NCBI GenBank assembly: GCA_021604725.1
Contig: BQJN01000003.1
Coordinates: 2,416 to 66,415, forward strand
Source: Lysobacteraceae bacterium
GTDB lineage: Bacteria > Pseudomonadota > Gammaproteobacteria > Xanthomonadales > BQJN01
Length of the DNA stretch: 64,000 nt
Direction: 5' to 3'
Below the pieces are notes generated by a model. It was not told the origin of the DNA. It saw only the letters and a list, made by a program, of their open reading frames with translations, and made no database searches. The position numbers were made by a program, and so were the translations under genes. Every line of letters begins with the position of its first letter. Position 1 is the stretch's first letter. Positions 9,516-24,686 of the stretch are shown here, one piece after another.

Positions 9516-9588
9516 TCTTCACGGGTGTTAGCACCTTGAATTGTCGCGTCACGTCAACGCCGCGCGGTATAGTGTGCCGTATAAGCCT

Positions 9589-12500
9589 ATGGTCCGATTT
9601 CCTGCAACTGCCGCGCTAATGCTGCTGAGTCTATTGGCTCACTCGGTTCATGCTGGCCAGTCACCTGCCTACCTCAACTTCGAAAGCGGTCATGTCAGGC
9701 CATTGGCCTTGTCTTCCGATGGCAACACCTTGTACGCAGTCAATACGCCGGATGCGCGTCTGGAGGTTTTTTCGGTCAAGCGGGACGGGCTCGTCCATAT
9801 GCACTCCGTGCCGGTGGGTCTTGAGCCGGTTGCGGTGGCGCTAAATGGCGATGATCAGGCTTGGGTGGTCAACCATTTGTCCGATAGCGTTAGCGTTATA
9901 GATATGGCTTCTATGCGACCACAGGTGGTTCAGACCTTGCTGGTTGGTGACGAGCCTCGAGATATTGTGTTTGCTGGTGGTCAAGGCAAACGAGCCTTCA
10001 TCACCACCGCCCACCGCGGCCAAAGACGAACTGACGTAGCACTTTCTGATGTTCCCGGGGCAGGCGACCCGCAGCTGACGACTGCTGGCGTGGGTCGGGC
10101 CGACGTCTGGGTTTTTGACACACGGCAAATCGAGCGCACGCAAGTTGCGGGCGGGCGGCCGTTGGCGATTGTAACGCTGTTTGGTGATACCCCCAGGGCA
10201 TTGGCGGTTTCGCCGAATGGCAAGGCTGTATACGCGGCCGTTTTTCAGTCCGGCAACCGAACCACGGTGGTGTCGTCACTGCAGGTATGTGAGCAGACCG
10301 CCAGCGGCGTTTGTGATGGCGATGGCGTGACCTCGCCGGGCGGGTTGGTCGATGGGCAGCTACCTGCTGGCCCACTGTCGCCTACACATGATGCCAACGG
10401 CCATCCCGCGCCGCCGTCAAGTCTCATCGTCGAGCAGCAAGGTGACCAGGGCGTCTGGCTGGATGAGCTGGGCCGCAACTGGAGCAACGCGGTGCGGTTT
10501 CATCTTCCAGACTATGACGTATTCAAGATCAACGCTCGCTCGCTGCAGGTCAAGCGTCGTTACTCGCAGGTCGGCACCACCCTGTTCAATATGGCCGTCA
10601 ACCCGACCTCGGGTGCGCTGTACGTTAGCAATACTGAGGCCAACAATGCCACACGGTTCGTTGGCGACGGCCAGTTCGCTGGCAGCTCGGTACAGGGCCA
10701 CCTGGCACCGGCGCGCGTCACCGTCATTGACCGGGGCTCAGTGACGCCGCATCGACTCAACCCACATATCGACTACGCAGTCACCCCTGCCGCTGGTGGA
10801 GTAAAAGAGCATAGTTTGGCAACGCCGATGGGTATGGCGGTCAGTGCCGATGGCGGGACGCTATACCTCGCCGCGTTTGGGTCTGGCAAAGTCGGCGTCT
10901 TCAACACCGATACTCTGGAACGCGGCGACCTTGATCCTGAGCAAGCCAGTACTCAATACCTTCAGGTCAGTGGTGGCGGACCGAGCGGACTGGCCCTCGA
11001 CGATCACAATCAACGCTTGTTTGTGGCCACCCGCTTCGATAATGGCATCTCGATGATTGACCTTCAGACCGGGATTGAGCTCGATCATCAAACAATGCCC
11101 AGCCCGGAGCCTGAGTCCATCACGGAGGGTCGACGGCTGTTCTACGACGCCGCGTTTACTTCCTCCAATGGTGAGGCATCTTGCTCAAGCTGCCACATGT
11201 TCGGTGATACTGATCATTTGGCCTGGGATCTGGGCAATCCGCAGGGCGACATTGTCGACAACCCGTTGCCGATGAACATGAAGGTGGTGGCCACGACTTT
11301 GGGCCAGGCTGAGCCGAACATAAATGGCAGTGGCGTCGTTACCGATCTGCATCCAATGAAAGGGCCGCTGGTGACGCAAACACTTCGCGGTATTGCCCAC
11401 TCCGGTGCCATGCATTGGCGCGGTGATCGTGCGGTAGGTGAGTTCGCCAATGATGCCTTTGATGAGCGCGTTTCATTCATGAACTTCAATGAAGCCTTTC
11501 CAGCCCTGCTGGGTCGGAGTGCGCCGCTGGACACAGAGGATATGTCAGCCCTGACAGACTTTGGCCTGTCCATCGTTCAGCCGCCAAACCCCATTCGAGC
11601 GCTGGACAATCAGCTCAGCCAAGCGCAAGCGCGTGGCGCCGCGTTTTTCTTTGGAACACGTCGTGCCGTCGGCTCACCGATCGATTTTCTGGGCGGGTCA
11701 CCTGAGGGTTTTACCTGCGAGGGCTGTCATACCGTTGATCCCGCTGAGGGACAGTTTGGTACTGGCGGCCACGCGGCATTCGAATTCCTGCATCAGATCT
11801 TCAAAGTGCCGCAGTTGCGAAACCTGCACACCAAGGTGGGCATGTTCGGTGTGCCAAATCGCCCTTTTTTCAATGCCAGGAGCAACCACCACCTGGGGGC
11901 GCAGATACGGGGCTATGGCTTTTTGCACGATGGTGCGTCGGACACCATTTTCCGAAACTTCAGTATCCTGCCATTCAATGGCCGAAACACCGTGTTTGGG
12001 TCCACTGGGTTTCCGAATGATCAGGTCCGTCGGGACGTAGAGCAGTTCATGTTCGCGTTCGAGGGCGATCTGGCGCCTATTGTTGGGTCTCAGTTGACGG
12101 TCACTGCACCTGCGTCTGAGGCGGCAATAGAACGATTAGCCTTGCTGATCGAGCGTGCGCAACAGCCCTTTGTCTCGCGAATTTTGGGCGGTGAGGTTAC
12201 GGAAGCTGATTTGGTGGTTTTGGGCACCATTGATGAGCAGCCGCGCGGATGGATGATGCAGGGCGATGCCTTTACCTCTGATCGGCGCTCTGAGCCAGAC
12301 TATTCGATCGATCAGCTACTCGATCTGGCGCAGCACCAGGCGCTAACTTTCACGGCAGTACCGCCCGGCTACGGTGCGCGTATCGCACTGGATCGTGATC
12401 TCGATGGCATATACAACGCCGATGACGTCTGTCCAGCAGTGTTCGATTCGAACCAGTTCGATCAGGATTCGGATGGCGTTGGCGACCTTTGTGATAACTG

Positions 12501-12732
12501 TGAAATGTATGCCAATGGCAACCAGCGCGATAGCAATGGCGATGGCATAGGCAATGCGTGCGATGCTGACCTGAATAATGATGGCGCGGTGGACTTCGCT
12601 GATTTTGCAATCATGGTCGGCGTGCTGTTCTCGGCGCATGATGGCGATGCAGATCTCGATGGCAACGGTCAGGTCGACTTAAATGACCTGGCCAGGTTGC
12701 AGGAACTGTGGGGCGCTGTCAGCAGCGGATAG
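9589..12732 (+). CDS. secreted multidomain protein: YVTN-type beta-propeller + di-haem cytochrome c peroxidase/MauG-like domain + thrombospondin type 3 / dockerin-like Ca-binding repeats
   Basis: Signal peptide MVRFPATAALMLLSLLAHSVHA (ATG 9589; the track starts at TTG 9541). Propeller blades LYAVNTPD.., AWVVNHLSDSVSVID, LYVSNTE.., LFVATRFDNGISMID. Two CxxCH haem motifs: CSSCH 11182-11196 and CEGCH 11716-11730. CCP-family motifs FKVPQLRN and GFLHDGA. C-terminal DQDSDGVGDLCDNC, DSNGDGIGNACD, DLNNDGAVDFADF, DLDGNGQVDLNDL. Confidence 0.8.
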   Translation: MVRFPATAALMLLSLLAHSVHAGQSPAYLNFESGHVRPLALSSDGNTLYAVNTPDARLEVFSVKRDGLVHMHSVPVGLEPVAVALNGDDQAWVVNHLSDSVSVIDMASMRPQVVQTLLVGDEPRDIVFAGGQGKRAFITTAHRGQRRTDVALSDVPGAGDPQLTTAGVGRADVWVFDTRQIERTQVAGGRPLAIVTLFGDTPRALAVSPNGKAVYAAVFQSGNRTTVVSSLQVCEQTASGVCDGDGVTSPGGLVDGQLPAGPLSPTHDANGHPAPPSSLIVEQQGDQGVWLDELGRNWSNAVRFHLPDYDVFKINARSLQVKRRYSQVGTTLFNMAVNPTSGALYVSNTEANNATRFVGDGQFAGSSVQGHLAPARVTVIDRGSVTPHRLNPHIDYAVTPAAGGVKEHSLATPMGMAVSADGGTLYLAAFGSGKVGVFNTDTLERGDLDPEQASTQYLQVSGGGPSGLALDDHNQRLFVATRFDNGISMIDLQTGIELDHQTMPSPEPESITEGRRLFYDAAFTSSNGEASCSSCHMFGDTDHLAWDLGNPQGDIVDNPLPMNMKVVATTLGQAEPNINGSGVVTDLHPMKGPLVTQTLRGIAHSGAMHWRGDRAVGEFANDAFDERVSFMNFNEAFPALLGRSAPLDTEDMSALTDFGLSIVQPPNPIRALDNQLSQAQARGAAFFFGTRRAVGSPIDFLGGSPEGFTCEGCHTVDPAEGQFGTGGHAAFEFLHQIFKVPQLRNLHTKVGMFGVPNRPFFNARSNHHLGAQIRGYGFLHDGASDTIFRNFSILPFNGRNTVFGSTGFPNDQVRRDVEQFMFAFEGDLAPIVGSQLTVTAPASEAAIERLALLIERAQQPFVSRILGGEVTEADLVVLGTIDEQPRGWMMQGDAFTSDRRSEPDYSIDQLLDLAQHQALTFTAVPPGYGARIALDRDLDGIYNADDVCPAVFDSNQFDQDSDGVGDLCDNCEMYANGNQRDSNGDGIGNACDADLNNDGAVDFADFAIMVGVLFSAHDGDADLDGNGQVDLNDLARLQELWGAVSSG

Positions 12733-12826
12733 CAAGCTGGTCCGACTCGCCAGTGGCGGCCGACGCGAACTGAATGTATTGTGGTTCACCAATTGGTTAC
12801 CACAGCAATAACAAAGGGGACTCCCA

Positions 12827-13465
12827 ATGAGATCTATAGCTGCCATTGTTTTGATGATCGCTGCCGCCGCGGCACAAGCTGCCACCGTCACGGTTGTCAA
12901 CTACTCGTATTGGGATATCCACTATCTGTACATTTCACCATCCGCTTCGAACAATTGGGGCCCCGATCAGCTGGGCAATCAAATCCTGGGGTCTGACCAG
13001 CAAATAACGCTGAAAATGGGCACCGGCGATTGGGATGTGCGGCTGGTAGATGAAGATGGTGATGAATGCGTTGTATTCGCTGTGCCGGTAAGAGGTGGCA
13101 GCGACAGCTGGGAAATCACCAACGACGACCTGCTCGATTGCCAGTCTGAAACCGAAACCGGTGGTGGCTATTCGGCTCAAGGTGCCGGTGGAACAGCCGA
13201 ACTTTATAACGGCACCAGTTACGATATTTACGAGATCTACCTGTCACCAACTCGCCAAAATACCTGGGGCCGAGACTTGCTCGGTAATCAGATTCTGTAT
13301 ACCGGTGAGACGTTTCAATTGTCGAATATCAGTTGTGACAACTATGACGTACGTATTGTCGATGAGGACGATGATGTATGTGAGTACAGCGGTGAATACA
13401 TTTGTGGCGATGCCGGCACCTGGCACCTGACCGACGATGAGTTGCTGAGCTGTCAGGGGTATTGA
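12827..13465 (+). CDS. small secreted protein made of two copies of an unnamed ~90-aa domain
   Basis: Signal peptide MRSIAAIVLMIAAAAAQA. Residues ~19-108 and ~122-212 align: Y.I..+Y+SP...N.WG.D.LGNQIL......L......+DVR+VDED.D.C......G...W.+T.D+LL.CQ. Confidence 0.7.
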   Translation: MRSIAAIVLMIAAAAAQAATVTVVNYSYWDIHYLYISPSASNNWGPDQLGNQILGSDQQITLKMGTGDWDVRLVDEDGDECVVFAVPVRGGSDSWEITNDDLLDCQSETETGGGYSAQGAGGTAELYNGTSYDIYEIYLSPTRQNTWGRDLLGNQILYTGETFQLSNISCDNYDVRIVDEDDDVCEYSGEYICGDAGTWHLTDDELLSCQGY

Positions 13466-13645
13466 GCTGGCCCATCATCTATCGCGACAAGCAAATAGCT
13501 AGGCCTAAGGTCACTGGACAGTGGCGGCTGCCGTTACTATGCTCAGAGGCTATGCTTTCTATAGGGATCATGTACGCAGCCAATTGGGCTGTTAACACGC
13601 CTGCTTGTACCGGGCTATTTAACCAATGAAAACAGGGGATGAACG

Positions 13646-13861
13646 ATGTCCAAGTTAGTTGATTTGATGAAGGACTTAGGCCAGGACGCAAGTCTTGCCA
13701 ACGAATATCAGAATGACGCTGATGGCGTGATGAAACGGTATGGCCTCAGTGATGAAGAATGCGCGGCGATGAAGTCCTGTGATGTCGACAAGATCAAGCA
13801 GATGAGTGGCTTGAGTGATGTGCATGTGACCACCAACAGCACAATCAAAGCCTTCGAATAG
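13646..13861 (+). CDS. candidate split-borosin (SonA-like) RiPP precursor peptide
   Basis: 71 aa, with AGGGGA 6 nt upstream of the ATG. Acidic helical N-terminal ~50 aa (LGQDASLANEYQNDADGVMKRYGLSDEECAAM), then the tail SGLSDVHVTTNSTIKAFE. Same strand and operon as an OphMA-like N-methyltransferase. Noticeably lower GC than the flanking genes by eye. Confidence 0.65.
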   Translation: MSKLVDLMKDLGQDASLANEYQNDADGVMKRYGLSDEECAAMKSCDVDKIKQMSGLSDVHVTTNSTIKAFE

Positions 13862-13872
13862 ATGGTTGAGCG

Positions 13873-15630
13873 GTGGCCAGCAGAGTGAAATTGATTGCCG
13901 CCGGTTTCGTCGCTCTGCTGACCGCTGCCAGTGTTGACTCAGTCGACTTGCAGTCCGAGTTGGATCGAGCGGCCCATCTTAATGTGACCGCACCCTGGGA
14001 GGAGTCCCAGCAGGTGCTTGATGCGATTGAGCCGCAGATGCACACCGCAACGCCCCGTCAACGGGGCCAGTTCGAGTTTATCGCCGCGCGCAATCGGGCA
14101 CTGGCCGGCGATTGCGACGCAGCGGTTTCGTCACTCCAACGTTTGCGAAGCGCCGACTCTGACCCGGATCAACGGTTGGGTGCCTATCGCCTTTCTGCCA
14201 ACTGCGCTCTCAATCAGGGGGACTTCGAACAGGGGTTCAGCTTTTTGTCGCTCGGGTTGAGCTTGTTGCCTGAGGTCGAAGCGTCCAGTGAGAAGACCAT
14301 GATTCTCGGCTTGGCGACCTACTACCATAGTCAGGCTGGTGAGCCAGCCAAAGCCTTGGAGTATGCGCAACAGGCGATGGATCTGGCCGCTCTGGACGAC
14401 GACCAGCGCGGGCTCTGCATGGCACTGTTCGACCTATCCTTGGCCGAGGAGAACGCGGGCGCCATTAGAGAGGCCTCAGTGTCAGCCAGGTCTGCCGTTG
14501 AGTCCTGCAAGGCCGCTCAGGACCCTGTCTATGTTGGTGCATCTCAGGTTCAATACGGCGAGTTGCTAAGTGAACTAGGTGATCATGAAGGTGCCAGACG
14601 AGCGGTTGAGGCCGGTCTAGGGTCTATGCAAGAGGCGGGGTATCGCGACGGTGTTATGCGTGGCCAATTGACCCTGGCCCACATTCTGGTTCAACTCGGC
14701 GACAGTTCGCAGGCCACCCAATTGCTACGCCCCCTGGTGGATGAGTTCGAGCGAATGGAGTATTGGCGTGACTTACGCGAAACGCTAATTTTGTTGGCCA
14801 CTCTCGGTGCCGAAGTCGGCGACTATGAACAGCCATATCATGACCTGCTTCGCGCGGAGGCTGCTAATGATAAGTACCTCGATGGTGACAGGGCCATGCG
14901 ATTGAGCTTGTTACAGGTACAGTTCGACACTTTGCACAAAGAGCAGGAGATTGAACTGTTGCGAGAGCGTAACCGCTTGCTCGAAGTGCAGGAGCAGGCG
15001 CAAAATGAGCGACGGCAACTGGTCACCTGGGGCTTGTTCATTCTGGCCGTGATCGGTGCTTTCCTTTTTATGTTGCTGTTGCGCACTCGCTCAGATCGCC
15101 GCCATCTGCTTTGGTTGTCTGAACATGATGGCTTGACCGGTCTTAGCAACCACACCACCTTTTTCAACCGCGCCTCGGTGACTCTGGAAGAGTGTTTATC
15201 TCAAGGGCGCCCGGCCGTTCTTTTCGTAGCTGACATCGATCATTTCAAACGCACCAACGACGAGCACGGTCATGCTTGTGGCGATGAGGTCTTGCGTCAT
15301 GTTGGGGTGGCGATGGTTAATACGTTTAGCCGATCCGACATCGTAGGTCGCGTCGGCGGTGAGGAGTTTGCCGCACTGCTGCCTGACCATACGGCGGTTG
15401 AAGCGAAAGGCATGATCGCCCAGTTTCACAAGCGGTTGAGCGAAGAAGAGGGCGCTTCTGAGCTGCCTCCAATTACGCTCAGTTACGGCTTGGCCGAAGC
15501 ATCACAAGGCCAAACGCTGGAGGCATTGCGTCAGACCGCAGATGAGGCTCTTTACGTGGCCAAACGCCGAGGGCGTAACCAGATCGTTGAGGCGGCGACG
15601 CTAACACCTGCACAAGAGGTCAGCGCTTGA
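13873..15630 (+). CDS. membrane diguanylate cyclase: periplasmic TPR-like helical-repeat sensor + GGDEF domain
   Basis: GTG start. N-terminal signal/anchor, ~370 aa helical repeats, a coiled coil, and a single TM (WGLFILAVIGAFLFMLLL). The GGDEF domain has HDGLTGLSNH and an intact GGEEF active site. The stop TGA 15628-15630 overlaps the TTG start of the next gene. Confidence 0.85.
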   Translation: MASRVKLIAAGFVALLTAASVDSVDLQSELDRAAHLNVTAPWEESQQVLDAIEPQMHTATPRQRGQFEFIAARNRALAGDCDAAVSSLQRLRSADSDPDQRLGAYRLSANCALNQGDFEQGFSFLSLGLSLLPEVEASSEKTMILGLATYYHSQAGEPAKALEYAQQAMDLAALDDDQRGLCMALFDLSLAEENAGAIREASVSARSAVESCKAAQDPVYVGASQVQYGELLSELGDHEGARRAVEAGLGSMQEAGYRDGVMRGQLTLAHILVQLGDSSQATQLLRPLVDEFERMEYWRDLRETLILLATLGAEVGDYEQPYHDLLRAEAANDKYLDGDRAMRLSLLQVQFDTLHKEQEIELLRERNRLLEVQEQAQNERRQLVTWGLFILAVIGAFLFMLLLRTRSDRRHLLWLSEHDGLTGLSNHTTFFNRASVTLEECLSQGRPAVLFVADIDHFKRTNDEHGHACGDEVLRHVGVAMVNTFSRSDIVGRVGGEEFAALLPDHTAVEAKGMIAQFHKRLSEEEGASELPPITLSYGLAEASQGQTLEALRQTADEALYVAKRRGRNQIVEAATLTPAQEVSA

Positions 15631-16433
15631 CTGCCAGCTCAGCTCCTGCCGGGGAGCTGGTCATCGTTGGTGCCGGCATTCAGCTTGGTCGCCATATTTC
15701 GCAACGGGCATTAAGCGAGATCGAGCACGCTGATGTCGTGCTGTGTTTGGTCGATACCTTTGCCTTAAGTTGGCTAAAGCAGGTTCGCCCGGACCTGATC
15801 GAATTGAATGAACTGTATGGTCCTGGCAAGGACCGCCGCATCACCTACGCGGAGATGGAGGCGGCAATGTTGGCGCCGCTGCGCGAAGGCAAACGGGTGT
15901 GCACGGTTTTTTATGGACACCCTGGTGTGTTCGCCGACGCGCCCCATGCGGCAATGGTTCGCGCTAGAGCCGAAGGGTACCTTGCCCGTATGGAGCCGGG
16001 AGTGTCAGCCGATGCCTGCCTGTTTGCCGACCTTGGCTTCGACCCCGGGTTGCATGGCGTGCAGTCATTTGAGGCGACGCAGTATTTGATCTATCAGCGA
16101 AACATTGATCCCAGTGCCTTGTTGATTCTGTGGCAAGTGGCCTTGGTCGGTGATTTAAGCTGCAAGGTGATGACCACGACACCTCAGCGGCGACAACTTC
16201 TGGTGGACAAGCTGTTGACGGTCTATCCGCTGCAAACCGAGGTCATTTTGTATGAAGCAGCGACGGTGCCGGTGCAGCAGCCACGAATTGACAGAATGCC
16301 AATCGAGGCCCTTCCAAATGCCAGCTATGTCGAACATACAACGTTGGTCATTCCTCCGGCGGTAAAACTGGTGCCTGATCGCGCCATGCGTGACCAGCTT
16401 ATGGAAATGGCGCCGATAGTTGATTCGAATTGA
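15627..16433 (+). CDS. borosin-type peptide backbone alpha-N-methyltransferase (TP_methylase fold; OphMA/SonM-like)
   Basis: 268 aa. Block-by-block match to the OphMA methyltransferase domain as recalled: [61 protein letters not shown]. No cobalamin or sirohaem genes nearby. Confidence 0.8.
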   Translation: [268 protein letters not shown]

Positions 16434-17085
16434 CTCCTCGGACATAACTGTGAATGTGCCCCTTGAACGGCGCTTCAAGGTATGAGGTATCGACCGGCTT
16501 GTTCTTGCTGTGGCCATAACCGAGGGCCAGCATCAACTTGGAAAACCTGCCTTCGTTTTTGCGTCCAGGGTCGACAATAATCACCTCACACTTTTGCTTG
16601 GCATGAGCGTCGATGAACGAAGCCAGCAGCCTGGCGTGGTCGGGTTCGTACAGCAAATCGCTGCCGATGATCAGATCAAAAGCGCCCAGCTCATCATCGA
16701 GGTCAGCCCAGCCGGTTCGGTCGAACGGGATTACTGGTCCGTCGTTCAAGGCAGCGTTGCGTCGCAGAAAGCTCTCGGTTTCGGGGTGGTGATCGGTCGC
16801 TGTGATGTCAGTTCTACGGTAGTTCAGGACAAGGCTGGCCAGGGCAATGCCGCAGCCCACCTCGAGGATGCGTTTGCCTGCAACTTCGAAGTCAAGCATG
16901 TGGTGAGCGAGAACTTGAGCCGAGGGCCAGACAATACCGAACATCGGCCAGTTGGCAGACGATATGCCAAGCTTCTCGGCCACGCCCTCAAGGTCAGAAA
17001 ACTGTTGATTGTCGCGCAGGGTTCTCAAGTGCACATCGAATGCACCAACCTCCAGGGTCTGGTAGCGAAGGCGCAGAACTGACAT
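16399..17085 (-). CDS. class I SAM-dependent methyltransferase (Methyltransf_16 / protein-lysine MTase-like)
   Basis: ILEVGCGIALASLVL (motif I), TDITATD, FDLIIGSDLLYEPDH. I prefer the ATG ending at 17085 (AGGA upstream) over the track start at 17133. Its 3' end overlaps the convergent gene by 35 nt. Confidence 0.75.
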   Translation of the reverse strand: MSVLRLRYQTLEVGAFDVHLRTLRDNQQFSDLEGVAEKLGISSANWPMFGIVWPSAQVLAHHMLDFEVAGKRILEVGCGIALASLVLNYRRTDITATDHHPETESFLRRNAALNDGPVIPFDRTGWADLDDELGAFDLIIGSDLLYEPDHARLLASFIDAHAKQKCEVIIVDPGRKNEGRFSKLMLALGYGHSKNKPVDTSYLEAPFKGHIHSYVRGVNSNQLSAPFP

Positions 17086-17248
17086 GGCATTATCCTGAGT
17101 AGGGATCGCAAAGAAGCAGGCTAATTGCAACACCTTGACGGATTACGCACGCAAGCGGATTGGTCAGAGCTTCCCTTAATCTACACCCACGCCCCGTATT
17201 GCGCCATTGGCGCTGTACAGTAGTCGCCAGAAAAATGACAATGGTGGG

Positions 17249-17764
17249 ATGAGTCTTGACGAACAACTCAGAGAACTGCTTGTTCAACTTCGCGATGAAC
17301 GGGTGAACTATGCACTGATTGGCGGGCTTGCCATGAACGTTCATGCCAGGCCCCGTGCTACCGCTGATATCGATTTGCTGGTGGCCGCTTCGGATCACGA
17401 TTTACTGTGCCGGCTGCTGAAGAGATTGAGCTATGTTGTACTTGATGATCGGCCAGAGCTGGCAAGTTTCGTACGAGGGGGACAGCGCGTCGATGCGCTA
17501 TTCGCCACAGGTGAGCACGCGAAAGAGTTTCTCACCGAGTCACGATTGATTGAGGGAGTGGATGGTCTCCGCGTAGTCACGCCCGAGGCGCTTATCGCGC
17601 TGAAACTGCAGGCGTTCAATGATGATCCACGCCGACTGCAAGACCTGGCCGACATTATGGGGTTGGTTGAACACAACAAAGATGCCCTTGATGTCGAGCG
17701 CCTGCGGGGCTACTTTGAGATATTCCAGCGTCTTGAGCTTTTCGATGAGCTGTTTGCCCAATGA
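17249..17764 (+). CDS. minimal nucleotidyltransferase (pol-beta superfamily, MNT-like)
   Basis: GG-x13-DID signature (IGGLAMNVHARPRATADIDLLV). The start could be ATG 17249 or TTG 17207. Confidence 0.6.
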   Translation: MSLDEQLRELLVQLRDERVNYALIGGLAMNVHARPRATADIDLLVAASDHDLLCRLLKRLSYVVLDDRPELASFVRGGQRVDALFATGEHAKEFLTESRLIEGVDGLRVVTPEALIALKLQAFNDDPRRLQDLADIMGLVEHNKDALDVERLRGYFEIFQRLELFDELFAQ

Positions 17765-17973
17765 TTACTGATCGATTGACTGCCGAGAGCCTTGCGGCCC
17801 GAGGCAAAGAGCACTCACCCACTGCGGTAGAGCAGTGGGAGCAACAGCGCCTCGCCGCCATGTCGCAACAGCAGCGTTTCGACGAGGGGCTGCAGCTGAG
17901 TAGTGTTGCCATGGCCATGCGGAGGCATGCGCCGGACCACCAGCCCATCGGTGGCAAGGTGTTCATTCTTTAG
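17761..17973 (+). CDS. small hypothetical protein coupled to the nucleotidyltransferase gene
   Basis: 70 aa with an ATGA overlap with the upstream gene (17761-17764). No recognisable domain. Confidence 0.35.
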   Translation: MITDRLTAESLAARGKEHSPTAVEQWEQQRLAAMSQQQRFDEGLQLSSVAMAMRRHAPDHQPIGGKVFIL

Positions 17974-18130: not shown

Positions 18131-18529
18131 ATGAGCGTGTTCACATATCAACACGCGCGTCGTTTCGCCTACCGCTTGGCCCTTGTACAAGGGTTGTTTG
18201 CGGTGCTGCCGGCGCCGGGAATCTGGATTCTGTTGGGTGGAAAGTTTGCGTTGGCGTTTGTCGCCGGCGGGCTGGCCACGGCAACTGGCAGCGCCTTGGC
18301 CACATGGTGGGCTTTCGGACGCGGTCAGCAGGCTCCGGGTATCAGCAGTTTGCTGGTGGCCGAGGCATTGAAATTCACGGTTGTGATCGTGGTAGTGGCT
18401 TTGGCCATCGTACGTTGGAAGCTGCCTTTCGGGGCGCTGTTGCTGGGGCTGATTGTGGCTCTGGTCGTGCACTACCTGGCGGGCTTGAAAAGCTCGATCG
18501 CAACGCAAGATAAAGAATTGAAAGATTAA
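18131..18529 (+). CDS. atpI: ATP synthase protein I
   Basis: 132-aa hydrophobic protein with 4 helices, immediately upstream of atpB, in the canonical position. Confidence 0.8.
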   Translation: MSVFTYQHARRFAYRLALVQGLFAVLPAPGIWILLGGKFALAFVAGGLATATGSALATWWAFGRGQQAPGISSLLVAEALKFTVVIVVVALAIVRWKLPFGALLLGLIVALVVHYLAGLKSSIATQDKELKD

Positions 18530-19393
<864 letters not shown>

Positions 19394-19458
19394 GATTTTT
19401 GGTGGCCGCAATAATGCGACCATGTTGAGTTTTGTTTTTTGATATTGATCTGGCTTAA

Positions 19459-19725
<267 letters not shown>

Positions 19726-19805
19726 GTAGATCCCATCGACGACTTACCCGGGGTTGACTGTAGTTGGCTCCGGACAGGTTTTGACCGAAACGACGAGGTG
19801 ACGGT

Positions 19806-20276
19806 GTGAATTTCAATCTGACATTAATCGGACAATCGATCGCGATGATCGTGTTCGTCTGGTTCTGCATGAAATACATCTGGCCACCGATGATTGCAGC
19901 TTTAGAAGAGCGCAAGCAGAAAGTGGCAGACGGTATTGCAGCCGGCGAACGTGGTCAGCATGAGTTGGAACTGGCGCAAAGCCGAGCAACCGAGCTTCTG
20001 AAAGAAGCCCGCGCGCAAGCGGCACAGATTCGCGAGCAGGCCAACCAGCAGGCGGTCCACATCAAGGATCAGGCCAAAGTCGACGCAGTTGCAGAACGCG
20101 AGCGTCAACTGACGGCAGCACAAGCTGAGATCGAGCAAGAGGCGTCTCGTACCAAAGAGGCGTTGCGCACTCAGGTGGCAGCATTGGCAGTGGCAGGCGC
20201 GGAGCAATTGCTCAAGCGCGAAGTCAACGCTGATGCGCACCAGGATCTGCTCGACAAACTCGCTGCGGAAATCTGA
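19806..20276 (+). CDS. atpF: F0F1 ATP synthase subunit b
   Basis: 156 aa with a GTG start. One N-terminal TM ([12 protein letters not shown]) and a long charged coiled coil. Confidence 0.9.
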
Positions 20277-20278
20277 TC

Positions 20279-20809
20279 ATGAGCGAACTGTCCACACTGG
20301 CTCGACCCTATGCTCGAGCCGTTTTTGAACTCGCTCGCGACCGTGATGCTTTGGCCAATTGGCACGAAGCGATGGTCTTGTGCGCCGCCATGGCGGCTGA
20401 TGATCGCGTACGTGATCTGCTGACCAATCCAGCAGTTTCACGTGAGCAACGTCAGTCGATCTTCGTTGGCGCCTCTGAGCAGCCCGAGGGTTTCGACAAC
20501 TTCATCGCTGTGCTTTCAGCCAACGATCGTCTGGTGTTGTTACCCATCATCGTAGAAGAGTTCGCCACGCTGCGGGCCGACCATGAGCGCACGCTCACGG
20601 TAACGGTTCAGTCGGCGTTGCCTTTGTCGGACTCGCAGCGAGCACAGATCGCTGAAGCGATGAGCCGGCGCACCGGCAGAAGTGTAGAGCTCGACGAGAC
20701 AGTCGACGAGTCGCTGATTGGCGGCGTACGTATTCTCGCTGGCGACGAGGTCATTGACGGTTCACTGCGCGGACGGCTGGAACGGCTCGGTTCAGCGCTC
20801 AACCAATAA
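20279..20809 (+). CDS. atpH: F0F1 ATP synthase subunit delta
   Basis: 176 aa. N-terminal LARPYARAVFELA (OSCP family), in the expected operon position. Confidence 0.9.
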   Translation: MSELSTLARPYARAVFELARDRDALANWHEAMVLCAAMAADDRVRDLLTNPAVSREQRQSIFVGASEQPEGFDNFIAVLSANDRLVLLPIIVEEFATLRADHERTLTVTVQSALPLSDSQRAQIAEAMSRRTGRSVELDETVDESLIGGVRILAGDEVIDGSLRGRLERLGSALNQ

Positions 20810-20827
20810 GCACCAAGGTTTTTTGAC

Positions 20828-22375
20828 ATGCAAACGACACTCAATCCATCGGAAATCAGCGAGCTGATTCGTTCTCGAATCGAGAACTTCAAAGTTGAAT
20901 CCGAAGCCCGTAACCAGGGCACAGTGGTCTCCGTCTCTGACGGTATCGCTCGCATCCACGGCTTGGCCGAGGTAATGCAGGGTGAAATGATCGAATTCCC
21001 CGGCGACACCTTTGGTCTCGCTCTTAACCTCGAGCGCGATTCGGTCGGTGCCGTAATCCTCGGCGCTTACGATCACATCGCCGAAGGCGACAAGGTCAAG
21101 TGTACCGGTCGTATTCTCGAAGTGCCGGTAGGCCCCGAGATGATGGGTCGCGTAGTAGACGCTTTGGGTAACCCAATCGACGGCGCTGGCCCGATTGACA
21201 CCAAGCTGACTGCGCCCATCGAGCAGGTCGCTCCTGGTGTAATTACACGCCAATCGGTAGACGAGCCAGTACAAACTGGTCTGAAGTCGATCGACGCCAT
21301 GGTGCCTGTTGGTCGCGGCCAGCGTGAGCTGATCATTGGTGACCGCCAAACCGGTAAGACCGCCGTTGCCGTTGATGCCATCATCAACCAGAAAGGCACC
21401 GGCATTAAGTGTATCTATGTGGCCATCGGCCAGAAGCGTTCATCGGTGGCTGCCGTTGTTCGCAAGCTGGAAGAGCACGGCGCGCTGGAGCACACCATCA
21501 TCGTTGCTGCCACCGCCTCTGACTCTGCGGCCTCCCAGTACATTGCTCCTTATGCTGGTTGTGCCATGGGCGAGTACTTCCGTGATCGCGGCCAGGATGC
21601 GCTGATTATTTATGATGATTTGACCAAGCAGGCTTGGGCTTACCGTCAGATGTCACTTTTGCTGCGTCGTCCGCCAGGCCGTGAAGCTTACCCGGGTGAT
21701 GTTTTCTACCTGCACTCTCGCTTGCTCGAGCGCGCGGCGCGAATCAATGCTGACTACGTCGAGAAGCTGACCAATGGCGAAGTGAAAGGCAAGACCGGTT
21801 CTCTGACCGCATTGCCGATCATTGAGACCCAGGCTGGCGACGTTTCGGCCTTCGTTCCGACCAACGTGATCTCAATCACCGATGGTCAGATCTTCCTGGA
21901 GACTGACCTGTTCAACGCGGGTATCCGACCGGCTATCAACGCTGGTTTGTCGGTATCTCGTGTTGGTGGTTCAGCACAGACCAAGATCATCAAGAAGCTG
22001 GGTGGCGGCGTTCGTTTGGCCCTGGCTCAGTACCGAGAGCTGGCAGCCTTTGCTCAGTTCGCCTCTGATCTTGATGAGACGACGCGTAAGCAGCTGGAGC
22101 GCGGACAACGTGTAACCGAGCTGATGAAGCAGGCGCAGTACAGCCCGATGAGCGTGTCAGAGATGGCCGTTTCATTGTATGCCGTTGATCGCGGTTACTT
22201 CGATGATGTCGAACTGAATCAAGTGTTGGCCTTCGAGGCCGCGCTGATTGAGCACATGAAGGCCAACGAAGCGGCTTTGATGAAGAAAATCGACGATACC
22301 GGTGCCTGGAATGATGAGATCGAAGCGAGCCTGAAGGCTGGTGTCGAGAGCTTCAAAAAGACCGGTTCCTGGTAA
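20828..22375 (+). CDS. atpA: F0F1 ATP synthase subunit alpha
   Basis: 515 aa. Walker A GDRQTGKT, plus [11 protein letters not shown] and [21 protein letters not shown]. Confidence 0.98.
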
Positions 22376-22387
22376 GAGGTCAAGCTG

Positions 22388-23251
22388 ATGGCTGGCGCAA
22401 GAGAAATTCGCACCAAGATCAAGAGTGTTCAAAACACTCGAAAGGTCACCAGTGCACTGGAAATGGTCTCGGCGAGCAAGATTCGCAAAGCCCAGGACCT
22501 GATGAGTGCATCTCGGCCTTACGCCAAGATGATGAAACAGGTGATTGGTCACCTCGCAGCAGCAACACCTGAGTATCGTCATCCGTTCATGACGGAGCGA
22601 GAAGAGGTTAAGCGAGTGGGCTTTATTGTCATCTCGTCTGATCGCGGCTTGTGTGGCGGCCTCAACGGCAGTTTGTTCAAGGCCATTCTGGCCGAGATGA
22701 GAGCGTGGCAAGACAAAGGTGCTGAGATTGATGTGGTCTGTGTTGGTGCCAAAGCCATCCAGTACTTCAAACGTCTGAAGGTGAACATTGTCAGCACCGC
22801 ATCGCATCTCGGTGAGAAGCCGCAGGTCTCGGATCTGATTGGTGTGATCAAGGTCATGCTGGATGATTACATGGATGGCAAGGTTGATCGCGTCACGCTG
22901 GCGTATAACAATTTTGTCAATACCATGACCCAGAAGCCGACGTTGGACGCCTTGTTGCCATTGCCCGAAGGTGATGATGACGAGGTCAAGAACAACTGGG
23001 ATTACCTGTATGAGCCCGAGGCACAGGTCGTACTGGATGAGGTATTGGTCCGTTACGTCGAGTCATTGGTGTATCAGGCGGTGGTCGAGAACTTGGCCAG
23101 TGAGCACGCCGCGCGAATGGTCGCCATGAAGGCTGCCACCGATAACGCCGGCGATCTGATCAATGATTTGCAGCTGGTCTACAACAAGGCCCGTCAGGCA
23201 GCGATCACCCAGGAAATTTCGGAAATTGTCAGCGGTGCCGCAGCGGTTTAG
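22388..23251 (+). CDS. atpG: F0F1 ATP synthase subunit gamma
   Basis: 287 aa. N-terminal [25 protein letters not shown] and C-terminal [19 protein letters not shown]. Confidence 0.95.
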
Positions 23252-23276
23252 CGCGGCGTCGTTCAAATGAATTTGA

Positions 23277-24686
<1,410 letters not shown>

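Follow-up and report, generated by a model that had tools for sequence, protein, structure and literature searches.

Why should the gene for a membrane-bound sensor enzyme stand between the two genes of a peptide-modification pathway? The question is raised by a stretch of 64,000 nucleotides (nt) from contig BQJN01000003.1 of a Lysobacteraceae bacterium (positions 2,416 to 66,415; hereafter the window), in which a gene for a periplasmic-sensor diguanylate cyclase lies at positions 13873 to 15630. It is flanked by the genes for the precursor and the alpha-N-methyltransferase of a split borosin, a peptide made on the ribosome and modified after translation (RiPP). We refer to the SonA-like precursor gene as A, to the cyclase gene, whose product joins tetratricopeptide repeats (TPR) through a transmembrane (TM) segment to a GGDEF domain, as G, and to the SonM-like methyltransferase gene as M. 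The comparisons reported here give good support to G as the middle gene of a self-contained three-gene operon, A-G-M. The locus is, by sequence comparison, a further example of a published arrangement, an unfused member of the lineage that includes the Type X borosins. As an explanation of the whole, we have moderate confidence in a type I membrane cyclase, encoded in this three-gene operon, that forms one membrane-bound unit with the methyltransferase.

Gene order and junctions

The first-pass annotation of this DNA had placed the cyclase gene between the precursor and methyltransferase genes, and the gene coordinates, the gap and the overlap that it gave were all confirmed. Exactly 11 nt separate the TAG stop of the precursor gene from the cyclase start at 13873 (a second in-frame GTG lies at 13885), and the cyclase TGA (15628-15630) overlaps the methyltransferase TTG (15627-15629) in the tetranucleotide TTGA. 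This TTG is a weak start, with GAGG 7 nt 5' of it, and is the sole start codon 5' of the conserved N-terminus of the methyltransferase. The methyltransferase is read in the -1 frame relative to the cyclase, so that two polypeptides result, probably by coupled translation. A programmed frameshift joining both open reading frames (ORFs) was considered and set aside, as there is no obvious slippery sequence at the junction and the good Shine-Dalgarno sequence and start codon suffice.

The G-to-M junction was similarly tight in relatives, being an overlap or a gap of at most 3 nt in eight of nine unfused cases. The 4-nt TTGA overlap of the window recurs in L027 and L025, and L028 has a 4-nt GTGA overlap; L033 and L003 show ATGA-type overlaps of 1 nt and L001 and L002 gaps of 3 nt, leaving L034 (115 nt) as the lone exception. 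The A-to-G gap was 5-33 nt in the six junctions that were read, and reached 91 nt when starts were called computationally for all 64 modules. The earlier proposal of a single operon is supported by this comparison, in which the trio recurs with short gaps, overlaps and fusions, and we infer from sequence that the three genes are co-transcribed.

A consensus scan of positions 12600-17400 gave one promoter-like match on the + strand (TGGACA-17 nt-TATGCT, about 100 nt upstream of the precursor gene), a candidate operon promoter, and no terminator-like site between the three genes. Both hexamers fall inside a block that is conserved with the nearest relative, L027, where the remaining intergenic DNA has diverged. 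This block (13498-13550), which reads GCTAGGCC..GGTCACTGGACAG...TTACTATGCTCAG, possibly holds an operator. An Rfam search of 12700-17300 for a c-di-GMP (cyclic diguanylate) riboswitch or other RNA gave no match at E values up to 0.1.

Relation to published borosin clusters

The first-pass annotation was unaware of any borosin cluster with an embedded c-di-GMP enzyme; this was mistaken, and both the pairing and the fusions were published in 2021-2023. In the preprint 'Diverse protein architectures and alpha-N-methylation patterns define split borosin RiPP biosynthetic gene clusters', GGDEF was the commonest Pfam domain in split-borosin clusters (56%), the son cluster of Shewanella oneidensis was found to hold a periplasmic-TPR/TM/GGDEF protein, and 'Type X' borosins were defined by a methyltransferase fused C-terminally to a TPR-TM-GGDEF protein, with 35 members, 24 of them from Xanthomonadales (bioRxiv 10.1101/2021.12.24.474128). 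The son cluster comprises SonM (SO1478), SonA (SO1479) and the GGDEF protein (SO1480) together with a cation efflux pump (SO1481); the cluster has no known native role (PMC10549244). Our literature search found no later paper explaining the link between borosins and GGDEF proteins.

The methyltransferase, the cyclase and the precursor of the window all belong to the same lineage as their Type X counterparts. They share with these the methyltransferase clade (54-62% identity), the cyclase family, the precursor family, the core motif TN[HS]TI[KR]AY[DE] and the order of genes or domains, first A, then G, then M. The window differs from Type X in keeping its two enzymes separate, with a TGA stop and a change to the -1 frame between them, and so lacks the single polypeptide. 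The resemblance to the son cluster (Type IV) is more distant. Both have a discrete SonM-like methyltransferase, a SonA-like precursor whose leader carries the same fold signature and whose tail after SG is 16 amino acids (aa) long, and a signal/TPR/TM/GGDEF protein that is homologous over its full length; however, the order was M-A-G in all 17 Shewanella-type loci, the core peptides are unrelated (LSDVHVTTNSTIKAFE in the window, DSSYQSYLVISHGNGD in the son cluster), the cyclase and methyltransferase genes overlap in the window, and no cation-efflux gene was seen among the window's immediate neighbours. Orthologues of SO1480 in Shewanella align with the window cyclase from end to end at only 24-25% identity. 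The association is therefore old, and the homology is not confined to the GGDEF domain.

Distribution of the gene trio

Gene order around the methyltransferase was surveyed in 26 GTDB genomes. The A-G-M order of the window was found in Wenzhouxiangella and related metagenome-assembled genomes (MAGs), Luteimonas kalidii (L004 and L032) encodes cyclase and methyltransferase as a single ORF, and Lysobacteraceae MAGs show the order M-(A)-G; at six more distant loci no GGDEF gene lay within 6 kb of the methyltransferase. The genes flanking the A-G-M trio differ from locus to locus, suggesting that the trio moves as a module. No conserved exporter or leader protease accompanied the module in the loci compared.

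A wider sample came from scanning metagenomes with aligned methyltransferases of the A-G-M clade, which gave the 80 nearest loci (50-62% identity). Among these, 49 were fused, 20 were unfused with G directly upstream, eight were on contigs too short to be informative and three lacked G, so that the cyclase was upstream of or fused to the methyltransferase in 69 of the 72 informative loci. The survey for GGDEF genes beside SonM-like methyltransferases that the first-pass annotation had suggested thus showed the association to be conserved, and fusion or tight coupling is nearly universal in the window's clade. In a neighbour-joining tree of the methyltransferases the fused forms fell within the A-G-M clade. 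The linker of the fusions measures about 12-16 aa, and its alignment is consistent with the tail of G and the head of M.

Viewed from the cyclase, the picture was similar. Full-length homologues of the cyclase include proteins of 833-856 aa with both GGDEF and TP_methylase domains, and when the genomic context of 11 family members was looked up one by one, the methyltransferase was adjacent or fused in seven; one context was cut by a contig end, with the precursor present, and three had none.

Several loci contain more than one G gene. In Wenzhouxiangella marina (L028), W. sediminis and a MAG (L001/L002), Lysobacter korlensis (L031) and Rhodanobacter aciditrophus (L134), the borosin genes are flanked by two or three TPR-TM-GGDEF paralogues. 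The orders seen at such loci were G-M-A-G, G-A-G-M and M-A-G-G.

Domain architecture of the cyclase

The first-pass annotation had described the cyclase as a signal or anchor followed by TPR-like repeats, a coiled coil, one TM segment and a GGDEF domain with intact GGEEF. This domain order stands, but the approximately 370 aa that it assigned to repeats do not; the repeats cover about 270 aa and are followed by a periplasmic stalk of about 64 aa (Table 1). Against Pfam, the protein matched GGDEF (E 3.4e-37), TPR_MalT (E 5.5e-12) and TPR_12, and against NCBIfam it matched generic diguanylate cyclase models only.

Conservation was assessed in an alignment of 50 full-length relatives. Hydropathy revealed a hydrophobic N-terminal segment (residues 7-20), and a signal-like segment with an AxA-like end is present in nearly all of the relatives, followed by a conserved DLQxxIDRAxxLNVTAPW; the segment is a cleavable-looking Sec signal. 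In the TPR region, Cys182 and Cys212, at the start and end of adjacent antiparallel helices, are both kept in 49 of the 50 relatives, an arrangement that would fit a periplasmic disulfide. A conserved EQEIELLRE motif stands just before the TM segment. In the AlphaFold2 (AF2) model (mean predicted local distance difference test score, pLDDT, 92), a single helix (residues 319-417) leads through the membrane into the GGDEF fold.

The residues D454, K459, N462, D471, R493, GGEEF, K564 and R568 are invariant in all 50 relatives, and we take those outside the GGEEF motif to correspond to D327, K332, N335, D344, R366, K442 and R446 of PleD. The RxxD inhibitory site (I-site), which lies five residues before GGDEF, is common in diguanylate cyclases but not obligatory. 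It is absent here; the window has SRSD, and at that column R occurs in five and D in eight of the 50. The protein is therefore predicted to be a type I inner-membrane diguanylate cyclase, catalytically complete and without the I-site for product inhibition. The top Foldseek hits were the GGDEF structures DgcB, WspR and PleD. The window cyclase shares with these and with SiaD the GGDEF fold (TM-score 0.83-0.89 to target), an intact active site and, as in DgcB, a helix running into the domain, and it differs from them in its periplasmic TPR input, the missing RxxD site and the linkage to a RiPP methyltransferase.

The TPR domain (13939-14826) is the region in which the cyclase departs most from that of L027. 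Identity falls to 30-40% over residues 240-330, compared with 85-92% in neighbouring segments and genes, a pattern suggesting that the sensor domain has locally evolved fast or recombined.

Table 1. Positions of the operon genes, cyclase domains and candidate control signals in the window.
Feature	Position	Strand	Basis or detail
SonA-like borosin precursor, 71 aa	13646..13861	+	stop TAG
Periplasmic-TPR sensor diguanylate cyclase, 585 aa	13873..15630	+	start GTG, stop TGA
SonM-like borosin alpha-N-methyltransferase, 268 aa	15627..16433	+	PDB, Pfam, motifs
Coupling junction: AAGAGGT (Shine-Dalgarno, 15614-15620) within the last part of the cyclase gene, followed by TTGA	15614..15630	+	sequence
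Candidate promoter, TGGACA-17 nt-TATGCT	13515..13543	+	consensus scan
Cyclase: Sec-type signal peptide, predicted, residues 1 to ~22	13873..13938	+	hydropathy and family alignment
Cyclase: periplasmic TPR-like superhelix, predicted, residues 42-314, ~7 hairpins, ~270 aa	13996..14814	+	AF2 pLDDT >90, Pfam TPR
Cyclase: one continuous helix, predicted, residues 319-417 (stalk/coiled coil, TM, cytoplasmic signalling helix)	14827..15123	+	AF2, hydropathy
Cyclase: single TM segment, predicted, residues ~383-405	15019..15087	+	hydropathy
Cyclase: cytoplasmic GGDEF domain	15121..15582	+	Pfam; GGEEF at residues 495-499, nt 15355-15369

Methyltransferase, precursor and core peptide

The product of M is a discrete alpha-N-methyltransferase of the TP_methylase fold (Pfam), with the borosin motifs YGHPGVF (as FYGHPGVF) and ADACLFADLG in its translation. 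Against the PDB it matched SonM (7ltc; E 5e-70, about 47% identity) and, more distantly, the fungal OphMA (E about 1e-41), and its nearest relatives among genomes, at 57% identity, are from Wenzhouxiangella. It is predicted to N-methylate the backbone of the core peptide.

The precursor is a separate short protein, as in other split borosins, in which a borosin-binding domain at the N-terminus precedes a core at the C-terminus. It matched SonA chains in the PDB over residues 1-61 (E 1e-9) and Pfam LigA weakly. The leader, or borosin-binding domain, occupies residues 1-55, and the predicted core, LSDVHVTTNSTIKAFE (nt 13811-13858), is the 16-aa tail after SG, equal in length to that of shewanellamide A. 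A core motif, [ST]GL.[DE][GV].[FYML].TN[HS]TI[KR]A[YF][DE], in which [ST]GL closes the leader, recurs across 64 modules (for example L034, 3780-3992, L221 and L262) and is common to fused (Type X) and unfused modules despite cyclases that are only 35-45% identical. Such conservation of the core is unusual for a RiPP, and suggests that its partner or function is fixed. Between sonM and the GGDEF gene, Shewanella decolorationis (L117, 6834-7298) and S. morhuae (L125, 6834-7300) carry two sonA-like precursor genes in tandem; the other Shewanella loci have one.

Proposed mechanism and alternative explanations

In the explanation that we favour, the cyclase and the methyltransferase would act together on the cytoplasmic face of the membrane, as they would when joined in one polypeptide in most close relatives. 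A periplasmic cue, probably not the peptide itself, would pass along the long helix and set the geometry of the GGDEF dimer and thereby c-di-GMP synthesis, and the dimeric methyltransferase beside the cyclase would methylate the conserved core (...TNSTIKAFE) of the precursor. Because both enzymes would be held together under one cue, peptide production and c-di-GMP output would be tied to the same place and signal, and the peptide would most likely stay cell-associated. More speculatively, the obligately dimeric borosin methyltransferase could pair two GGDEF domains, or binding of the precursor could alter that geometry.

A number of observations weigh against this explanation. The M-A-G order in Shewanella and Lysobacteraceae loci puts the precursor gene between the two enzymes, and 44% of split-borosin clusters have no GGDEF gene (bioRxiv 10.1101/2021.12.24.474128). 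Some full-length relatives of the cyclase have no nearby methyltransferase: L029 is beside an EAL gene, L135 is beside other GGDEF and EAL genes and has no borosin genes around it, and at L133, syntenic with the borosin locus of Wenzhouxiangella marina, three G genes stand in a row (G-G-G) without methyltransferase or precursor. In the AF2 monomer of a natural fusion (P0054), the linker had a pLDDT below 50 at residues 589-592 and the predicted TM-score (pTM) was 0.48, with a shallow methyltransferase alignment; the model shows no fixed interface and speaks neither for nor against one, and physical contact or allostery between the two enzymes is something that we infer. The RNA evidence consists of one contig of 172 nt (14163-14330) inside the cyclase gene, from the single metatranscriptome run with any of the sequence, and no RNA contig crossed either junction in the public runs holding the sequence.

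A second possibility, which we consider rather doubtful although worth weighing, is that the two enzymes are co-regulated and nothing more. The cyclase would sense an unrelated envelope cue, and the operon would be shared because the peptide and high c-di-GMP serve one lifestyle, such as that of a biofilm. Consistent with this are the variation of gene order by clade (A-G-M, M-A-G, G-M-A-G, M-A-G-G), the occurrence of G paralogues in tandem arrays and apart from borosin genes, the predicted flexibility of the modelled fusion linker, and the finding of the window sequence in public runs of largely marine origin (metagenomes of biofilm, seawater, sediment and algae). However, the frequency of fusions in the nearest clade (49 of the 69 linked loci) and the recurrent stop/start overlaps exceed what co-regulation needs, and by the Rosetta-stone argument proteins found fused usually work together.

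The first-pass annotation had suggested instead that the periplasmic domain might sense the exported methylated peptide. In such an autocrine loop the methylated peptide would be freed, reach the periplasm or the medium, bind the TPR domain and switch c-di-GMP synthesis on or off. If this were true, the RiPP signal would be read by a second-messenger enzyme of its own cluster. There are several reasons why the idea is attractive. TPR superhelices often bind peptides, and the best non-GGDEF Foldseek matches to the TPR part, with the protein LGN, were the Rap/RRNPP pheromone receptors (4gyo, TM-score 0.60, and 8rsv). The unusual conservation of the core could point to a fixed protein partner. 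In the comparison with L027, the TPR domain (52% identity) and the core (62.5%) have evolved fastest, against 91-92.5% for GGDEF, TM and methyltransferase and 87% for the leader, and in L001 and L002 the core is identical and the TPR domain 93-100% identical.

Co-evolution of TPR domain and core, hinted at by these two close pairs, gave no core-specific signal in partial Mantel tests on 58 non-redundant modules, a test of limited power at these distances. The correlation between core and TPR given GGDEF was r = 0.001 (p 0.49), that given the methyltransferase in fused modules was r = -0.004, and in unfused modules the core-TPR correlation (r 0.33) was below that of the leader-TPR control (0.43). 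Leader and core did covary with the methyltransferase given GGDEF (partial Mantel r 0.52 and 0.40), as expected for an enzyme and its substrate. Over all modules, the TPR domain was the most divergent segment (mean p-distance 0.64), compared with 0.55 for the core, 0.49 for the leader and 0.34 for the methyltransferase, and unlike the TPR domain the core counts among the most conserved segments after the methyltransferase. The covariation test thus weakens the idea of the peptide as ligand.

Other evidence points the same way. No exporter or leader protease travels with the module, fusions join both enzymes on the cytoplasmic side, and the conserved periplasmic motif persists in cyclase relatives that have no borosin genes nearby. 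Cell pellets of wild-type and overexpression strains contained shewanellamide A, which was not detected in supernatants (PMC10549244). The likeness of the modelled TPR fold to Rap/RRNPP receptors and LGN (TM-score about 0.6, 10-14% identity) is generic. The superhelix is similar in length to that of the Rap/RRNPP structures (TM-score 0.57-0.60 normalised to target for 4gyo and 8rsv), and it is this that invites the analogy of peptide binding, but Rap proteins are cytoplasmic and have neither a membrane span nor a GGDEF output, whereas the window protein carries its TPR domain between a signal peptide and a TM segment, with GGDEF as the output, and is not of RRNPP type in its layout. We therefore regard the autocrine loop as improbable, and are equally sceptical of a self-contained circuit of autoinduction from peptide to c-di-GMP, formed by the three genes, in which the 16-mer (LSDVHVTTNSTIKAFE or a trimmed version of it), methylated on its backbone, would reach the periplasm and bind the TPR domain.

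Least credible of all, and in our view very improbable, is a non-catalytic GGDEF domain that would tether the methyltransferase to the membrane, either as a scaffold or as a c-di-GMP receptor: the I-site is absent from the window cyclase and degenerate GGDEF domains serving as receptors are known in general, but in receptor-type domains it is usually the active site that is lost and the I-site that is retained, the opposite of what is seen here, and all catalytic residues are invariant in the 50 relatives.

The pairing of the methyltransferase with a sensor cyclase, which is frequent and sometimes physical, is the strongest available clue to the biological role of bacterial borosins. From the window, the published pairing gains a clean, unfused representative of the Type X lineage with an overlapping stop and start, from a marine gammaproteobacterium, and the survey adds near-universal coupling in the clade, the unusual conservation of the core and covariation results that speak against the peptide as a periplasmic ligand. 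The separate genes of the window could make it easier to ask whether the cyclase and the methyltransferase bind and regulate each other, as the favoured membrane-bound unit would have it.

Neighbouring genes and host

Two genes next to the trio were considered as cluster members and rejected, being kept only in the closest relative, L027. Upstream of the precursor gene, 12827-13465 (+) encodes a secreted protein of 212 aa with an internal two-fold repeat, each half resembling ...LY.SP....WG.D.LGNQIL...YDVR.VDEDGD.C...; it had no Pfam or NCBIfam match, is 85% identical in L027 (3958-4596) and is absent from all other modules. Downstream, 16399-17133 (-) encodes a class I S-adenosylmethionine-dependent methyltransferase (Methyltransf_16, lysine-methyltransferase-like, E 2e-10) that is convergent with the borosin methyltransferase gene, the 3' ends overlapping by 35 nt, and that is present in L027 (86% identity) and in none of the other modules.

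Further upstream, 9541-12732 (+) encodes a protein of 1063 aa with a signal-like N-terminus, beta-propeller matches (SGL/lactonase-like), a weak match to the di-haem cytochrome c peroxidase family CCP_MauG and thrombospondin type 3 or EF-hand-like calcium repeats at its C-terminus. On the other side, 17207-17973 (+) holds a gene for an AbiEii/DUF2204-type nucleotidyltransferase (185 aa) and then a 70-aa ORF whose ATG overlaps its stop; the two, beside the atp operon, may form a toxin-antitoxin-like pair. Directly downstream of the cluster region comes an F-type ATP synthase operon (18131-24686, +), with atpI-like, a, c, b, delta and alpha genes and further ORFs that we take to be gamma and beta.

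No representative genome has an AtpA more than about 81% identical to that of the window, and the best matches are spread over many gammaproteobacterial orders; the organism thus has no close sequenced representative in that genome collection. The host is a marine gammaproteobacterium, and in addition to the metagenomes an isolate-like public run also matches the window, at about 98.7% identity.

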